Source: Escherichia coli (GTDB lineage Bacteria; Pseudomonadota; Gammaproteobacteria; Enterobacterales; Enterobacteriaceae). Taken from it: DNA of 64,000 nucleotides. This document shows, in pieces, positions 3,471 to 57,472 of this stretch (position 1 is the first letter of the stretch; each line of letters starts with the position of its first letter). Below the pieces are notes generated by a model, which was not told the origin of the DNA, ran no database searches, and was given only the letters and a program-made list of their open reading frames with translations. The DNA is taken from NCBI RefSeq assembly GCF_030384885.1, contig NZ_CP128613.1. The stretch is one strand, 5' to 3'. The position numbers were made by a program, and so were the translations under genes.

Positions 3471-6182
<2,712 letters not shown>

Positions 6183-9202: not shown

Positions 9203-11287
9203 ATGGAAAGCAAACGTCTGGATAATGCCGCGCTGGCGGCGGGGATCAGCCCCAATTACATCAATGCCCACGGTAAACCGCAGTCGATTAGCGCCGAAAC
9301 CAAACGGCGTTTGCTTGACGCGATGCATCAACGTACCGCCACGAAAGTGGCGGTAACGCCAGTCCCGAATGTCATGGTCTATACCAGCGGCAAAAAAATG
9401 CCGATGGCGGTGGAGGGCAGCGGCGAATATAGCTGGCTGCTGACCACCGAAGAAGGAACGCAGTACAAAGGCCATGTAACGGGGGGCAAAGCGTTCAATT
9501 TACCGACGAAGTTGCCGGAAGGTTATCACACGTTGACACTCACCCAGGACGACCAGCGCGCGCATTGCCGGGTGATTGTCGCCCCGAAACGCTGTTACGA
9601 ACCGCAGGCGTTGCTGAATAAACAAAAGCTGTGGGGCGCCTGCGTCCAGCTTTATACGCTGCGATCGGAAAAAAACTGGGGTATTGGGGATTTTGGCGAT
9701 CTCAAAGTGATGCTGGTGGATGTGGCAAAACGTGGCGGGGCTTTCATCGGTCTGAACCCGATTCATGCGCTCTATCCGGCAAATCCGGAAAGTGCCAGTC
9801 CGTATAGCCCGTCTTCTCGTCGCTGGCTAAATGTGGTTTATATCGACGTTAACGCCGTCGAAGATTTCCATCTTAGCGAAGAGGCTCAGGCCTGGTGGCA
9901 GTTACCGACCACGCAACAGACGCTGCAACAGGCACGGGATGCCGACTGGGTCGATTACTCCACCGTCACTGCGCTGAAAATGACAGCATTGCGGATGGCG
10001 TGGAAAGGTTTTGCGCAACGTGATGATGAGCAGATGGCCGCGTTTCGCCAGTTTGTTGCAGAGCAGGGCGACAGCCTGTTCTGGCAGGCGGCGTTTGACG
10101 CGTTACATGCCCAGCAAGTGAAAGAAGACGAAATGCGCTGGGGCTGGCCTGCATGGCCAGAGATGTATCAGAACGTGGATTCACCAGAAGTGCGTCAGTT
10201 CTGCGAAGAACATCGTGATGACGTCGATTTTTATCTCTGGTTGCAGTGGCTGGCTTACAGCCAGTTTGCCGCCTGCTGGGAGATAAGCCAGGGCCATGAA
10301 ATGCCGATTGGCTTGTACCGTGATCTGGCGGTTGGCGTAGCAGAGGGTGGAGCAGAAACCTGGTGCGACCGGGAGTTGTATTGCCTGAAAGCGTCGGTGG
10401 GCGCGCCGCCGGATATCCTCGGCCCGTTGGGGCAGAACTGGGGATTGCCGCCGATGGATCCGCATATCATCACCGCGCGTGCCTATGAACCGTTTATCGA
10501 GCTGTTGCGTGCCAATATGCAAAACTGCGGCGCGTTGCGAATTGACCATGTGATGTCGATGCTGCGTTTGTGGTGGATACCGTATGGCGAGACGGCAGAT
10601 CAGGGCGCGTATGTTCACTATCCGGTAGATGATCTGCTCTCGATTCTGGCACTCGAAAGTAAGCGCCATCGCTGCATGGTGATTGGTGAAGACCTCGGCA
10701 CTGTACCGGTAGAGATTGTCGGTAAACTGCGCAGCAGCGGTGTGTACTCCTACAAAGTGCTCTATTTCGAAAGCGACCACGAGAAGACATTCCGCGCGCC
10801 GAAAGCGTATCCGGAGCAGTCGATGGCGGTTGCGGCGACACACGACCTGCCTACACTGCGTGGCTACTGGGAGAGCGGGGATTTAACACTGGGCAAAACG
10901 CTGGGGCTGTACCCGGATGAAGTGGTATTGCGCGGTCTGTATCAGGATCGCGAACTGGCGAAGCAAGGGTTACTGGATGCACTGCATAAACATGGTTGCC
11001 TGCCAAAACGTGCGGGGCATAAGGCATCGTTAATGTCGATGACGCCGATGCTTAATCGTGGTTTGCAACGTTATATCGCTGATAGTAACAGTGCTCTGTT
11101 AGGGCTTCAGCCAGAAGACTGGCTGGATATGGCCGAACCGGTAAATATTCCCGGAACCAGTTACCAGTATAAAAACTGGCGGCGCAAGCTTTCCGCAACG
11201 CTTGAGACGATGTTTGCTGATGATGGCGTGAACAAGTTGCTGAAGGATTTGGACAGACGGCGCAGAGCGGCTGCGAAGAAGCAGTAG
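9203..11287 (+). CDS. malQ: 4-alpha-glucanotransferase (amylomaltase)
   Basis: 694 aa; MESKRLDNAALAAGISPNYINAHGKPQ...; 9 bp downstream of the malP stop. Confidence 0.97.
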   Translation: MESKRLDNAALAAGISPNYINAHGKPQSISAETKRRLLDAMHQRTATKVAVTPVPNVMVYTSGKKMPMAVEGSGEYSWLLTTEEGTQYKGHVTGGKAFNLPTKLPEGYHTLTLTQDDQRAHCRVIVAPKRCYEPQALLNKQKLWGACVQLYTLRSEKNWGIGDFGDLKVMLVDVAKRGGAFIGLNPIHALYPANPESASPYSPSSRRWLNVVYIDVNAVEDFHLSEEAQAWWQLPTTQQTLQQARDADWVDYSTVTALKMTALRMAWKGFAQRDDEQMAAFRQFVAEQGDSLFWQAAFDALHAQQVKEDEMRWGWPAWPEMYQNVDSPEVRQFCEEHRDDVDFYLWLQWLAYSQFAACWEISQGHEMPIGLYRDLAVGVAEGGAETWCDRELYCLKASVGAPPDILGPLGQNWGLPPMDPHIITARAYEPFIELLRANMQNCGALRIDHVMSMLRLWWIPYGETADQGAYVHYPVDDLLSILALESKRHRCMVIGEDLGTVPVEIVGKLRSSGVYSYKVLYFESDHEKTFRAPKAYPEQSMAVAATHDLPTLRGYWESGDLTLGKTLGLYPDEVVLRGLYQDRELAKQGLLDALHKHGCLPKRAGHKASLMSMTPMLNRGLQRYIADSNSALLGLQPEDWLDMAEPVNIPGTSYQYKNWRRKLSATLETMFADDGVNKLLKDLDRRRRAAAKKQ

Positions 11288-16480: not shown

Positions 16481-18802
16481 TTAGTGGCAATCGCCAGTGG
16501 TGCTGGCTGCACAGCAACTGCTTACCGATTTGCGTGTTGCCAGCAGTTCGATATCGACCCGGCTACGTGCGCGACGCAGCAAACCGATAACCACGATGTT
16601 AAACAGGATAACCGCCAGAATGCACACCAGGCTGTAAGTTGGGTGCTGGCTGTAGCTGGCGACCTGGTAGAACAATGTTGCCAGTGAGTAAGCAATATTC
16701 AGCCCCCACAGGATGGAGAAGCCCATCCAGCCACGGCTTGATTCACGGGCGATGGCCCCCATCACCGAGATACACGGTACATACAGCAGAACGAAAATCA
16801 GGTAGCTGTAAGCAGCTGCTGCGCTTCCAAATTTCTGATCCATCACGCCCATCGCTCCGGTACCCATTTCACCGTCGCCTTTGCTCGCTTCAATGGGGTT
16901 CATCAGTACGCTAAGACTGAAGGTGTCTTTCAGACTCTGCCAGGTTTCATCTACCGCGCTGAATAGCTCTTCACCGAGGTTAAATTCCGCCGGATTGAAC
17001 TCTTCATCCTGAATATTTTCTGCGGTGTAGAGAGTGTTGAGCGTACCCACTACCACTTCTTTCGCCATTGCGCCCGTGAACAGGCCAACTGTTGCCTGCC
17101 AGTTATCTTCATGTACACCAATCGGCTTGAAGACCGGGGTGATCACCCGACTAACGGAAGCCAATGCGGAGTCGTTGATGTTATCGACGATTTTCCCGCT
17201 CAGAGAGAAGCTGTTGAAAGCGCTCAGGAAAATGCTGACGATGATAATCACTTTACCAGCACGCAGAACGAAACCTTTCAGACGCTGCCAGGTCTGGATA
17301 ATCAGGCTTTTAACGTGTGGTACATGGTAGACCGGTAGCTCCATGACAAACGGCGTCGCTTCACCGCGCATGATGGTGTACTTGAGCATCAGGCCAGTCA
17401 GCACCGCCATCACAATACCGAGCATATACAGCGAGAAGACCGCCAGCGCACCGTTCTGCCCGAAGAAGGCAGCCGCGAATACGGCGAAGATAGCCAGACG
17501 CGCGCCGCAGGACATAAACGGTGCCATCATGATGGTCATCAGACGTTCACGCGGTGCATCAAGCGTACGTGCGCCCATTACCGACGGTACGTTACAACCG
17601 AAACCAACGATCAGCGGTACAAAGGATTTCCCGGGCAAGCCCAGCGCCTGCATCAGACGGTCCATCACAAACGCCGCACGCGCCATATAGCCGGAGTCCT
17701 CGAGGAAGGAGAGGAACAGGTACATCATGCCGATCTGTGGCACCAGTGGCAGAACGGTGTTAATACCGCCCCCCAGGCCCTGGGCGAGGAAGATAGTCAG
17801 CCAGTCCGGGAAGTGGAGCGTGTAGCCAATCCACTGAATACCATGCACAAATAGCGCCACGGAGCCGACGTCAAACAGTGGCTGTAACGCCCCGCCGATG
17901 TTGATAGCCAACAGGAACATCAGGTACATCACAAAGAGGAAAATCGGCAGACCGAGGAAACGGTTGAGCACGATTTTATCTACCGCAGTGGTGAAACGGC
18001 TGGGTTCTGCCGTCAGGGTGTTGCTTACCACATCACAGATGGCAGCAATGCACTGGTAACGCGCATCGGCAATGTGCAGCGCCGGATCGTCCATCTCATT
18101 ACGCAGACGGGCGAGGGCGGCATCAAGATGCTGCGACGCTTCACCGGCGTAGGCGCGGCTGTAGATATCGCCTTCCAGCATTTGCAGGCCCAGCCAGCGA
18201 CGTTGTTTGAGCGGGATGTCGGAAGGCATCACTTTTGCCAGTGAATCTGCTTCGTTGAGCAGCGGCTGTGCGTAATGCACCAGTTCCACATTCTCGTTAG
18301 CTTTATAGCGATCAATCGCCAGCTTGAGCGCTTCAATACCGCGACCACGAGTTGAAACCAGCGGGATCACCGGGCAGCCAAGACGTGCCGACAGAGCATC
18401 AATTTCAATGCGAATATTTTGCTTCTCGGCAATGTCGAGCATGTTCAGCGCCACGATGCAGGGAATGCCGAGTTCCAGCAGTTGTAGCGTCAGGTACAGG
18501 TTACGCTCAAGGTTAGACGCATCCACCACGTTAATCAGCAGGTCAGCGTCGCCACTCAAAATGTAGTGACAGGCGATTTGCTCATCGAGCGAGGTCTGCG
18601 ATGAGATGGTGGTCAGAGAATAGGTGCCGGGGAGGTCCACCAGCGTGACCTGATGATCGGTGGTGGAGAATTGCCCTTCTTTACGTTCGACGGTAACGCC
18701 AGCCCAGTTACCTACACGCTGGCGCGCGCCGGTGAGCTGGTTAAATAAGGTTGTCTTGCCAGAATTTGGATTACCAATTAAGCCAATGGTTAATTTTTTC
18801 AT
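16481..18802 (-). CDS. feoB: Ferrous iron transporter FeoB (G-protein domain plus permease)
   Basis: [25 protein letters not shown]... with a GTP-binding P-loop; the track ORF begins 4 codons upstream. Confidence 0.95.
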
Positions 18803-19429: not shown

Positions 19430-19465
19430 GCCAGATGCGGCGTGAACGCCTGATCTGGCCTACGA
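19430..19465. repeat. REP (repetitive extragenic palindrome) element
   Basis: GCCAGATGCGGCGTGAACGCCTGATCTGGCCTAC resembles the REP consensus GCCGGATGCGGCGTGAACGCCTTATCCGGCCTAC. Confidence 0.7.
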
Positions 19466-47527: not shown

Positions 47528-48278
47528 GTTTGAAGATATTCGCGGCGTCGCTTTTGATCTCGATGGTACGCTGGTGGACAGTGCTCCTGGTCTGGCTGCT
47601 GCGGTAGATATGGCGCTGTATGCGCTGGAGTTGCCCGTCGCAGGTGAAGAGCGTGTTATTACCTGGATTGGTAATGGCGCAGATGTTCTGATGGAGCGTG
47701 CATTGACTTGGGCGCGTCAGGAACGTGCGACTCTGCGTAAAACAATGGGTAAACCGCCCGTTGATGACGACATTCCGGCAGAAGAACAGGTACGTATTCT
47801 GCGTAAACTGTTCGATCGCTACTATGGCGAGGTTGCCGAAGAGGGGACGTTTTTGTTCCCGCACGTTGCCGATACGCTGGGCGCATTGCAGGCAAAAGGC
47901 CTGCCGCTAGGTCTGGTCACCAACAAACCGACGCCGTTCGTCGCGCCACTGCTCGAAGCCTTAGATATCGCCAAATATTTCAGCGTGGTGATCGGTGGCG
48001 ATGATGTGAAAAACAAAAAGCCGCACCCGGACCCACTGTTACTGGTGGCTGAGCGGATGGGCATTGCCCCACAACAGATGCTGTTTGTTGGCGACTCCCG
48101 CAATGATATTCAGGCAGCAAAAGCAGCCGGTTGCCCTTCAGTTGGCTTAACCTACGGATATAACTACGGCGAGGCTATCGATCTTAGCCAGCCTGATGTA
48201 ATTTATCAGTCTATCAATGACCTTCTGCCCGCATTAGGGCTTCCGCATAGCGAAAATCAGGAATCGAAAAATGACTAA
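47520..48278 (+). CDS. gph: Phosphoglycolate phosphatase
   Basis: 252 aa HAD family; [30 protein letters not shown]...; overlaps the rpe stop. Confidence 0.95.
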
Positions 48279-49275
48279 GCCCATCGTTTTTAGTGGCGCA
48301 CAGCCCTCAGGTGAATTGACCATTGGTAACTACATGGGTGCGCTGCGTCAGTGGGTAAACATGCAGGATGACTACCATTGCATTTACTGTATCGTTGACC
48401 AACACGCGATCACCGTGCGCCAGGATGCACAGAAGCTGCGTAAAGCGACGCTGGATACGCTGGCCTTGTATCTGGCTTGTGGTATCGATCCTGAGAAAAG
48501 CACCATTTTTGTTCAGTCCCACGTGCCGGAACATGCGCAGTTAGGCTGGGCACTGAACTGCTATACCTACTTCGGCGAACTGAGCCGCATGACGCAGTTT
48601 AAAGATAAATCTGCGCGTTATGCCGAGAACATCAACGCGGGTCTGTTTGATTATCCGGTGCTGATGGCGGCGGATATCCTACTGTATCAAACCAATCTGG
48701 TGCCGGTGGGTGAAGACCAGAAACAGCACCTGGAACTGAGCCGCGATATCGCTCAGCGTTTTAATGCGCTGTACGGCGACATTTTTAAAGTGCCGGAACC
48801 GTTTATTCCAAAATCTGGCGCGCGCGTAATGTCGCTGCTGGAGCCGACCAAGAAGATGTCCAAGTCTGACGATAACCGCAATAACGTTATCGGCCTGCTG
48901 GAAGATCCGAAATCGGTAGTGAAGAAAATCAAACGCGCGGTCACTGACTCCGACGAGCCGCCGGTAGTTCGCTACGATGTGCAGAATAAAGCGGGCGTTT
49001 CCAACCTGCTGGATATTCTTTCTGCGGTAACTGGCCAGAGTATCCCGGAACTGGAAAAACAGTTCGAAGGCAAGATGTATGGTCATCTGAAAGGCGAAGT
49101 GGCTGATGCCGTTTCCGGTATGCTGACTGAATTGCAGGAACGCTATCACCGTTTCCGCAATGACGAAGCCTTCCTGCAACAGGTGATGAAAGATGGCGCA
49201 GAAAAAGCCAGCGCACACGCTTCCCGTACGCTAAAAGCGGTGTACGAAGCGATTGGATTTGTGGCGAAGCCGTAA
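48271..49275 (+). CDS. trpS: Tryptophan--tRNA ligase
   Basis: 334 aa; [25 protein letters not shown]... with class I KMSKS motif. Confidence 0.96.
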
Positions 49276-49280
49276 TATCA

Positions 49281-49345
49281 AAACGCTCGGACAGTCCCCT
49301 CGCCCCTTTGGGGAGAGGGTTAGGGTGAGGGGAGCAGGCAAGCGC
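49281..49345. repeat. GC-rich palindromic repeat / probable terminator after trpS
   Basis: TCCCCTCGCCCCTTTGGGGAGAGGGTTAGGGTGAGGGGAG contains nested inverted repeats (CCCCTC...GAGGGG); repeat family not assigned. Confidence 0.45.
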
Positions 49346-49544
49346 CAGTGCGAATTACCCTCTGCTCGCATTGTCGAATAAATCAATTCGTCATCACTCT
49401 GAAACCGGGGAAACCCGGTTTTTTATCCTCCTATTTGCAATAATCCGAAAAAATGTGAAGCGCCTCGCCGTTTCCACATCTCGCTGTTGCGCCTTATCTT
49501 CGAATTCCTGAATATATAAATATTCAATTTAATGAAAATTTACT

Positions 49545-50450
49545 ATGCGTCGAACGTTTATCAAAAAAGAAGGCGTCGTCATCACGACACTGGCCCGTTA
49601 TTTGTTGGGTGAAAAATGCGGTAATCGACTGAAAACCATAGATGAACTGGCAACTGAATGCCATTCATCCGTTGGCCTGACGCAGGCCGCGTTGAAAACG
49701 CTGGAATCAAGCGGTGCGATACGAATTAAACGCCGCGGGCGCAATGGCAGTTATCTGGTGGAAATGGATAACAAAGCACTGCTGAGTCATGTGGATATCA
49801 ACAACGTTGTGTGTGCCATGCCCTTGCCCTATACCCGCTTGTACGAAGGTTTAGCGAGTGGACTGAAAGCTCAGTTTGATGGCACTCCTTTTTATTATGC
49901 GCATATGCGCGGCGCGGATATTCGTGTGGAGTGTTTACTTAACGGCGTGTATGACATGGCGGTGGTTTCCCGACTGGCGGCAGAAAGTTATCTCACGCAA
50001 AAAGGCTTATGCCTCGCGCTGGAGTTGGGGCCGCATACCTACGTTGGTGAGCATCAGTTGATTTGCCGTAAAGGAGAGGCTGCAAAGGTGAAACGCGTGG
50101 GGTTGGATAACCGTTCGGCGGATCAGAAAATCATGACCGATGTCTTTTTTGGCGATAGTGATGTGGAACGAGCCGATCTCTCTTATCACGAGAGTTTACA
50201 ACGCATTGTTAAAGGCGATGTCGATGCGGTGATCTGGAATGTGGTAGCGGAGAGCGAACTGGCCATGCTGGGATTAGAAGCGATGCCACTGACGAACGAT
50301 CCGCGATTTTTACAGGCTACTGAAGCCGTGATACTAACGCGTGCCGATGATTACCCAATGCAACAACTACTACGTACGGTTGTAGATAAACATGCCCTGC
50401 TTGCTCATCAACAGCGAGTAGTCAGTGGGGAACAGGAACCCAGTTATTAA
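49545..50450 (+). CDS. yhfZ: Putative transcriptional regulator YhfZ
   Basis: 301 aa; MRRTFIKKEGVVITTLARYLLGEKCGNRLKTIDELATECHSSVGLTQAALKTLE... with N-terminal HTH-like segment; first gene of the yhfZ-yhfS cluster. Confidence 0.8.
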   Translation: MRRTFIKKEGVVITTLARYLLGEKCGNRLKTIDELATECHSSVGLTQAALKTLESSGAIRIKRRGRNGSYLVEMDNKALLSHVDINNVVCAMPLPYTRLYEGLASGLKAQFDGTPFYYAHMRGADIRVECLLNGVYDMAVVSRLAAESYLTQKGLCLALELGPHTYVGEHQLICRKGEAAKVKRVGLDNRSADQKIMTDVFFGDSDVERADLSYHESLQRIVKGDVDAVIWNVVAESELAMLGLEAMPLTNDPRFLQATEAVILTRADDYPMQQLLRTVVDKHALLAHQQRVVSGEQEPSY

Positions 50451-56954: not shown

Positions 56955-56992
56955 TTCTGGGAACGATGTTTTCGCAGAGTATGGAGAAAAAT

Positions 56993-57018
56993 ACGCCCTC
57001 GGAAAATTCAGAGGGCGT
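56993..57018 (-). terminator. Hairpin terminator between convergent yhfS and yhfL
   Basis: ACGCCCTC-ggaaaattca-GAGGGCGT, an 8 bp stem; T-run on the minus strand downstream of the yhfL stop. Confidence 0.55.
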
Positions 57019-57058
57019 TAGCTCATTAAATCGGTGTTAGCCGATTTCTGTCAGAGAC

Positions 57059-57226
57059 TTACTGTGCAGTAGGACCGCAACCGCCAATGATTTTAGAAAT
57101 AGAAATTGCTGGGTGCAGCAGGTAGTCGTAAGAGCAGTTCTTATCACGGTTTTCAATATGACCAGTACATGCAGTTAACGTAGCCAGTACCGCACCAACC
57201 AGTGCAACTTTAATAAATTTGTTCAT
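57059..57226 (-). CDS. yhfL: Small lipoprotein YhfL (55 aa)
   Basis: Translated by hand from the reverse strand: MNKFIKVALVGAVLATLTACTGHIENRDKNCSYDYLLHPAISISKIIGGCGPTAQ, with lipobox LTAC. Absent from the ORF track because it is under 60 aa. Confidence 0.85.
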   Translation of the reverse strand: MNKFIKVALVGAVLATLTACTGHIENRDKNCSYDYLLHPAISISKIIGGCGPTAQ

Positions 57227-57472
57227 TTACATTCCCTATGTATTATATATTAATTAATATTCATTTATTATATGAATATAAGCAGACTGCTCATTAAGAA
57301 CGATACAGGAATATTTAATTGGCGTCAGTGAGTGAATGACTTAATTTTGTAAGTCGCTGTAACGGTGAAAATAACCCATTAGCAAATGATATTTACTAAG
57401 AGGTTATGATTTATTTACTGAATATATAAAAAGAGTGATAAAGAGGGCCAGAATTATCTGGCCCGGGTAAAA

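Follow-up and report, generated by a model that had tools for sequence, protein, structure and literature searches.

Box C downstream of trpS in Escherichia coli: a truncated and probably dispensable copy of a known dispersed repeat

The GC-rich element that lies downstream of trpS in the stretch of Escherichia coli DNA analysed here (64,000 nucleotides in all, hereafter called the window) is a copy of Box C, the known non-coding dispersed repeat of enterobacteria that has also been named PIT, TMECO and HPG1. The copy is truncated and lies in the 3′ untranslated region (UTR) of trpS. In our best explanation, to which we assign a probability of about 80%, it is dispensable, performs no specific task for trpS or yhfZ, and has a structural and recombination-prone role.

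The trpS–yhfZ intergenic region

The trpS gene, encoding tryptophan–tRNA ligase, occupies positions 48271–49275 on the + strand, and yhfZ, which encodes a GntR-family regulator and is the first gene of the yhfZ–yhfS cluster, occupies 49545–50450 on the same strand. Both assignments come from the open reading frame list and from the RefSeq annotation of E. coli strain 2013C-4282 (NZ_CP027579.1), with which this region of the window is 100% identical. The gap between the two genes, 49276–49544, measures 269 bp. These were the coordinates given to the element in the initial annotation; they do contain it, but they denote the whole gap, while the full Box C element spans only about 49279/49286–49362. 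The GC-rich string that had been quoted (CCCCTCGCCCCTTTGGGGAGAGGGTTAGGGTGAGGGGAG) is found on the + strand at 49296–49334, and begins 21 nt past the trpS stop codon. It is single-copy in the 64-kb window and multi-copy genome-wide, and its 0 matches across 100 shuffles place it far beyond chance. The trpS 3′ UTR is organized as the stop codon, Box C, and a separate intrinsic terminator, in this order.

At the other end of the cluster, the window diverges from K-12 a few bases beyond the yhfS stop codon. The sequence after yhfS (56955–57400, and on to 64000) contains neither frlABCDR nor the Box C and REP of the K-12 yhfS–frlR gap. The genes that follow yhfS are yhfL, cysG, nirC, nirD, and nirB, and the same order is found in strains D7 and O145 RM10425-C1.

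Identification of the element as Box C

The 36-mer at 49297–49332 is identical to TMECO nos 7, 11 and 15, which are of type “A mm” (Table 1, PMC4666352); TMECO is the new name given to the BoxC or PIT element by Holder et al. 2015 (PMC4666352). The name PIT element is that of Hoyne and Maher, and denotes the same repeat. Within the 36-mer, the 21-mer GGGAGAGGGTTAGGGTGAGGG is identical to the consensus of HPG1, one of the two names (HPG1 and HPG2) used by Kaplan et al. 2016 (PMC5100583). The reverse complement of 49286–49337 aligns end to end with the 22 BoxC sequences of K-12, a set from Petrillo et al. (PMC2267715, supplementary file 69), and the core plus flank is identical to eco:11_BoxC across 43 nt. 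The region upstream of fabI in K-12 also holds the HPG1 21-mer, and the 42-nt core at that site differs from that of the window at 1 position.

The general features of the family are present as well. The segment 49297–49332 has the three-block core, composed of CCCTC(G/T)CCC(C), a loop of 2–5 nt, GGG(G)AGAGGG, TTA or CCG, and GGGTGAGGG(G). The flanks extend the core into a unit of about 50–56 nt, as the alignment reaches through GACTGTCCGAG and to the CAG/TGTT end. The copy lies between genes, trpS and yhfZ, as do the other copies inspected. The window copy is thus like Box C/PIT/TMECO in being intergenic and multi-copy, in having flanks that match the 50–56-nt unit, and in residing in a strain-variable region. 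Unlike the 23 TMECO copies of K-12, it occupies the trpS locus, which is not among their sites and which in K-12 carries a REP pair.

With a 60-nt query, a Box C-like sequence was detected in all but one of the complete E. coli genomes (5425 of 5426). These genomes have between 1 and 29 such places, with a median of 16, and the chromosome of the host strain has 10. The element was initially left without a family, with the suggestion that it might belong to a dispersed repeat family other than REP. The suggestion is borne out by these counts, and the gap in the assignment is closed by the identity of the 36-nt core to the published copies. The element is multi-copy, and it has a strong predicted RNA fold (−23.7 kcal/mol), unlike the single-copy, unstructured sequence that would have refuted the initial annotation. 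In a scan of 48800–50000 against Rfam with a permissive E-value, only chance matches were returned; the best of them over the element was Antizyme_FSE, which scored 21.4 bits (E = 0.095) where the gathering score is 40. Rfam thus contains no family for Box C. Box C has been known since the 1990s, and the window element is already known in kind.

In K-12, the 3′ end of ycjD, which encodes a DUF559 protein, reads ACCCTCTCCCTGAAAGAGCGAGGGGG and resembles a degenerate Box C half-unit lying over the stop codon. The intact Box C that precedes fabI is about 170 nt away from this end (K-12 locus, about 5395–5420).

Anatomy of the window copy

Alignment with the published K-12 BoxC sequences places the type A unit and its conserved flanks (CTCGGACAG...GGGGAGCAG) at 49286–49337 on the + strand. 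The unit is preceded by a weakly conserved, A-rich lead-in, CAAAACG, that starts at 49279, and its left flank is shared with copies in K-12. The 36-nt core, on the same strand, is built from three blocks. The C-rich block CCCCTCGCCCC (49296–49306) is followed by the loop TTT, and the first G-rich block GGGGAGAGGG (49310–49319) by the loop TTA, after which the second G-rich block GGGTGAGGGG (49323–49332) is arranged in tandem with the first. The HPG1 G-quadruplex motif (49311–49331) is located inside this core, and the pattern GGGN3GGGN3GGGN3GGG has a single site in the 64 kb, namely the Box C. The inverted-repeat search showed that the C block can pair, though imperfectly, with either of the G-rich blocks, which mirror one another. 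The predicted fold is either one of two alternative hairpins or a three-block fold. The early description of the element as a GC-rich nested palindrome is consequently right in its GC-richness and its pairing blocks, but the nesting is not there, as one C block is followed by two tandem G blocks.

Downstream of the A unit, homology to the K-12 composites, in which an A unit is paired with an inverted B unit, defines the A+B spacer at 49338–49356. This is followed at 49357–49362 by ACCCTC, the stub of an inverted type-B unit, of which the remainder is gone. The stretch 49333–49362 (AGCAGGCAAGCGCCAGTGCGAATTACCCTC) runs from the tail of the A unit through the spacer into the B stub. It is homologous to the fepB–entC, ygfF–gcvP, and alx–sstT composites of K-12, and the alignment score of this 30-mer was reached by 0 of 2000 shuffles. 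The homology stops after ACCCTC, at 49362, where the K-12 composites go on with ACCCCGGCCCTCTCCC... The Box C of the window is therefore a two-unit element in truncated form, with a complete A unit, the family spacer, and 6–8 nt of the inverted B unit. It resembles the K-12 A+B composites in its A unit, its orientation, and its spacer of about 24–27 nt (AaCAGGCcaGCa..GTGCGAA..TTACCCTC). In contrast, the K-12 composites keep the whole B unit (ACCCTCACCCCGGCCCTCTCCC...GGG), whereas the window copy stops at ACCCTC and continues with 28 unrelated nucleotides. The window copy thus falls short of an intact pair, which would have both units in full, the B unit inverted and about 25 nt of spacer between them; here, the B unit is cut to ACCCTC.

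The 28-nt stretch (TGCTCGCATTGTCGAATAAATCAATTCG, 49363–49390) is private to the Box C allele of the trpS slot, and has no significant similarity to the BIME allele described below. It is followed by the 11-nt right junction TCATCACTCTG (49391–49401), which is common to the Box C and BIME alleles and differs in the empty allele. A BLAST search with the 65-nt query 49336–49400 found one place in each of exactly 1524 Box C-allele genomes, and none elsewhere. This single-copy result masked the short homology of the spacer, which was revealed by direct alignment to the K-12 pairs.

Distinction from REP elements and from the trpS terminator

REPs and BIMEs, like Box C, are short, GC-rich, structured, dispersed intergenic repeats, and a BIME fills this very slot of trpS in K-12, in 1735 genomes, and in E. 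albertii. A REP is a single imperfect palindrome (of the GCCGGATGCGGCGTGAACGCCTTATCCGGCCTAC type), as opposed to the three C/G/G blocks of Box C, and the two are without sequence similarity. The initial annotation noted that the element does not look like a canonical REP, and the comparisons agree. The window element lacks the REP consensus palindrome (…GCCGGATGCGGCG…CGCCTTATCCGGCCTAC…), and no match to the REP-tail pattern was found in 49276–49544. In addition, when the region was aligned with the sequence downstream of K-12 trpS, the two REPs (a BIME) in the K-12 slot did not align with the window insert. Over the whole window, the pattern searched, GCCTTATCCGGCCTAC, which represents one REP variant, has a sole match at 19448–19463, with 2 mismatches and within chance. 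The canonical REP units that the initial annotation mentions elsewhere in the window were not confirmed with this pattern.

The intrinsic terminator of trpS, AAACCGGGGAAACCCGGTTTTTT, was located at 49402–49424 on the + strand by its inverted repeat, its fold, and its conservation. It has the stem AAACCGGG / CCCGGTTT, the loop GAAA, and a T-run, and lies about 70 nt beyond Box C; its RNA fold has an energy of −14.5 kcal/mol (z = −2.5). The 23-mer is identical in Yokenella, Trabulsiella, and Enterobacteriaceae bacterium 89, where it is found 9–19 nt past the trpS stop, and it is kept in all E. coli alleles of the slot. This conservation just past the trpS stop in other genera therefore identifies the hairpin at 49402–49424 as the real terminator of trpS, separate from Box C. 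When the genome collection was scanned with the same 23-mer, many unrelated hairpins were also retrieved, and trpS was present at 7 of the 80 loci tested.

A structured terminator had been offered as a fallback identity for the element itself. Box C does resemble a rho-independent terminator in being a GC-rich hairpin downstream of a stop codon, but no U-run comes after it, as the sequence that follows is AGCAGGCAAGCG. The fallback thus finds no support, considering the missing T-run, the location of the terminator at 49402–49424, and the earlier work on PIT elements, which, in the account relayed by PMC4666352, had neither promoter nor terminator activity and no in vivo effect. A promoter and terminator scan of the + strand made no call over Box C; the terminator part of the scan also missed 49402–49424, probably since the longest stem there uses three of the T's.

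Three alleles of the trpS slot

The end of trpS and the terminator region are both present in 5074 of the 5426 genomes. The segment between them, which we call the trpS slot, contains Box C in 1524 of the 5426 and the REP pair (BIME), as in K-12, in 1735. Subtraction of these two filled classes from the 5074 leaves about 1815 genomes with an empty slot, in which the spacer is the 17-nt TTTAACATTAATGCCAA. The slot is accordingly filled by a BIME or Box C in about 60% of the genomes, and Box C is absent from it in about two thirds. Among the relatives, E. albertii has a BIME, Escherichia sp. MOD1-EC7003 has a single REP, and Escherichia sp. E1V33 has a Box C allele whose G-runs have decayed. The slot is empty in Yokenella, Trabulsiella, and Enterobacteriaceae bacterium 89, where 9–19 nt separate the stop codon from the terminator. 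From this short distance in the other genera, we infer that the empty slot is ancestral and that Box C was gained secondarily within Escherichia.

The terminator and the region upstream of yhfZ (49402–49544) are conserved in all of the slot alleles. Box C at this locus would hence be a dispensable passenger in the trpS 3′ UTR, because it is absent from about two thirds of the genomes and from the other genera examined, whereas both of these conserved stretches are retained in every allele.

In the Box C allele of E1V33 (locus 1386–1512), the G-run changes GGGGAGAGAG and GGGTGGGGGG break the quadruplex/triplex pattern, and the rest of the allele is intact. These changes are consistent with decay over constraint.

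How did Box C arrive in the slot? One proposal is that Box C, and especially the A+B composite, is a MITE-like element that transposed into this site and is still mobile. The composite, of about 130 bp, has an inverted-repeat structure with similar outer ends (CTCG..GTCCCCTCGCCCC and its complement), the number of Box C places per genome varies from 1 to 29, and no insert is present in the other genera examined. However, the alleles of the trpS slot offer neither a clean empty/filled junction nor a significant target-site duplication: a simple insertion would not account for all the differences between the filled and empty alleles. Moreover, E. coli and Escherichia sp. E1V33 share one and the same allele, private 28 nt included, which points to one old event rather than recurrent insertion. 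REPs have an associated transposase family, RAYT; for Box C, we know of no transposase. Holder et al. describe Box C as being without association to transposons, phages or plasmids (PMC4666352). We thus consider this proposal quite improbable. A candidate target-site duplication, ATCAAAACG / ATCAATTCG, matches at 7 of 9 positions, as expected by chance, and was not adopted.

Structure of Box C and possible effects on the neighboring genes

The predicted RNA fold of Box C is strong in its absolute energy, −23.7 kcal/mol (−10 as DNA), but is not exceptional against composition-matched shuffles (z about −1.2). The RNA fold prediction that had been proposed as a check on the element is thus favorable in the first respect and unfavorable in the second. 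We dropped hairpin stability as evidence for a function, as the energies are no better than those of the shuffles. Therefore, the structural argument rests on the conservation of the family and on the published biophysics.

REP elements have been described as stabilizing transcripts by blocking 3′-to-5′ exonucleases, and Box C could similarly act as a functional hairpin in the trpS 3′ UTR, protecting the transcript from its 3′ side. Such a function would account for the alternation of REP and Box C in one slot. It accords with the position of Box C in the transcribed region upstream of the terminator, with the absolute energy of its RNA fold, with the REP pair in the same slot of 1735 genomes and E. 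albertii, and with the G-rich strand being the mRNA-sense strand. On the other hand, no insert at all is present in about one third of the E. coli genomes or in any of the three other genera examined, the terminator hairpin already provides 3′ structure, and the fold is not distinguished from shuffles. Furthermore, the published tests of PIT/BoxC, to the extent that PMC4666352 reports them, found no effect on expression. A stabilizing function at trpS is therefore unlikely in our estimation.

The single strand of type A mm forms a very stable intrastrand triplex in vitro, as established by circular dichroism (CD) and NMR, with a Tm of 74 °C (PMC4666352). When the complementary strand is added, the duplex forms, and in the in vivo DMS footprinting, no protection was observed and the triplex was not detected (PMC4666352). 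Kaplan et al. recorded ion-dependent CD spectra of quadruplex and hairpin forms, and proposed a switch (PMC5100583). In line with their proposal for HPG1/HPG2, the window copy might be a switch between G-quadruplex, hairpin and duplex, or triplex, that acts on neighbors such as yhfZ. The 21-mer is indeed a canonical three-tetrad motif, the sole one in the window, and the ion-dependent structures (PMC5100583) and the NMR triplex (PMC4666352) demonstrate what the sequence can adopt in vitro. Several observations speak against the switch: the duplex that forms with the complementary strand and the lack of DMS protection in vivo (PMC4666352), and the published surveys, in which Box C copies have no consistent distance, orientation or gene class relative to genes (PMC4666352). 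In addition, Box C is missing at the locus in most genomes, while 49402–49544 is conserved in all of the alleles. We regard a switch controlling the neighboring genes as very improbable.

Box C at the junction left by a probable loss of yhfZ–yhfS

In E. coli O157:H7 strain 7636, a single Box C separates trpS from frlR (locus 501–630), and yhfZ–yhfS is absent at the locus. This Box C has the left flank of the trpS slot and, on its right, the flank that adjoins the Box C of the yhfS–frlR gap in K-12 (no. 15). By sequence match, the trpS–Box C–frlR junction is present in 342 of the 5426 genomes.

Three genomes, E2865, WCHEC020031, and UK_Dog_Liverpool, have both of these Box C copies, in direct orientation around the yhfZ–yhfS cluster. 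A pigeonhole count for genomes with both copies had given 2861 < 3550, and both copies were then seen in these three sampled genomes. In E2865, the copies form a perfect 43-bp direct repeat, with its members 7,699 bp apart (locus 9512–9546 and 17211–17245). When the O157 junction is compared with E2865 by blastn, it is divided into two segments that overlap on exactly these 43 nt. Furthermore, yhfZ comes next after trpS in both E. albertii and Trabulsiella; the presence of the cluster is therefore the ancestral condition, and the O157 arrangement is a derived one.

The simplest reading of the O157 junction, and one with which the sequences agree closely, appears to be that the eight-gene yhfZ–yhfS cluster was lost by recombination between the Box C of the trpS slot and that of the yhfS–frlR gap. 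The crossover could have occurred within one chromosome, or the deleted arrangement could have been acquired by exchange with incoming DNA, with one crossover in Box C; either way, Box C would be the junction. Taking the trpS–yhfZ slot and the yhfS–frlR gap together as a natural experiment, we consider it reasonably probable that Box C copies act as sites of crossover in the loss of gene clusters. Recombination between Box C copies was raised by Holder et al. just as a possibility (PMC4666352), and in the literature searched, we found no published account of a yhfZ–yhfS loss bounded by Box C.

In the yhfS–frlR Box C of WCHEC020031 and UK_Dog_Liverpool (locus 17160–17325), a G of the third block is replaced by A (GGGTGAGAGG). 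The direct copies in these two genomes are therefore no longer perfectly identical.

Proposed role of Box C at the trpS locus

Single-strand exposure: The G-rich strand of Box C is the + strand, which is the mRNA-sense strand for trpS. As judged by GC skew, the + strand has the sequence of the leading strand and so serves as the template of the lagging strand. During replication, the G-rich strand would be transiently single-stranded.

Fold-back and homology: Once single-stranded, the C/G/G blocks may fold back as a hairpin, or as a triplex or quadruplex according to the published in vitro work. Meanwhile, the near-identical copies of Box C would supply short homology at many sites of the chromosome.

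Instability: The combination of fold-back and dispersed homology would favor replacement, deletion, and ectopic recombination at the site. One such event, as proposed above, would be the crossover with the yhfS–frlR copy. TMECO loci are markedly more variable among strains than control intergenic sites (PMC4666352). The effect of Box C at this locus is thus likely to be that of a recombination or instability site, and not that of a regulator of trpS.

Two observations weigh against this explanation. First, 28 nt of the insert are unaccounted for, and the difference between the filled and empty alleles exceeds a clean insertion. Second, as opposed to a neutral reading, the filling of about 60% of the slots by a BIME or Box C could reflect selection for a structured 3′ UTR element.

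Implications

For annotation, the “unassigned” label is replaced by Box C, and the trpS terminator is placed in a separate hairpin. The truncated composite, the multi-allele slot, and the Box C-bounded loss of the yhf genes are useful illustrations, and no new kind of element is involved. The trpS slot, flanked by a stop codon and the terminator that serves it, illustrates how short structured repeats shape the intergenic regions of E. coli: roughly a third of the strains leave it empty, another third have REPs there, and the last third have Box C. The locus also provides a concrete, testable case for the published idea that Box C loci are hot spots of instability: the second Box C, 7.7 kb away, supplies the homology that would explain the loss of yhfZ–yhfS in the O157:H7 genome and in the 342 junction genomes. 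If this is general, Box C would drive the presence/absence variation of operons in E. coli, and would be more than a variable spacer.
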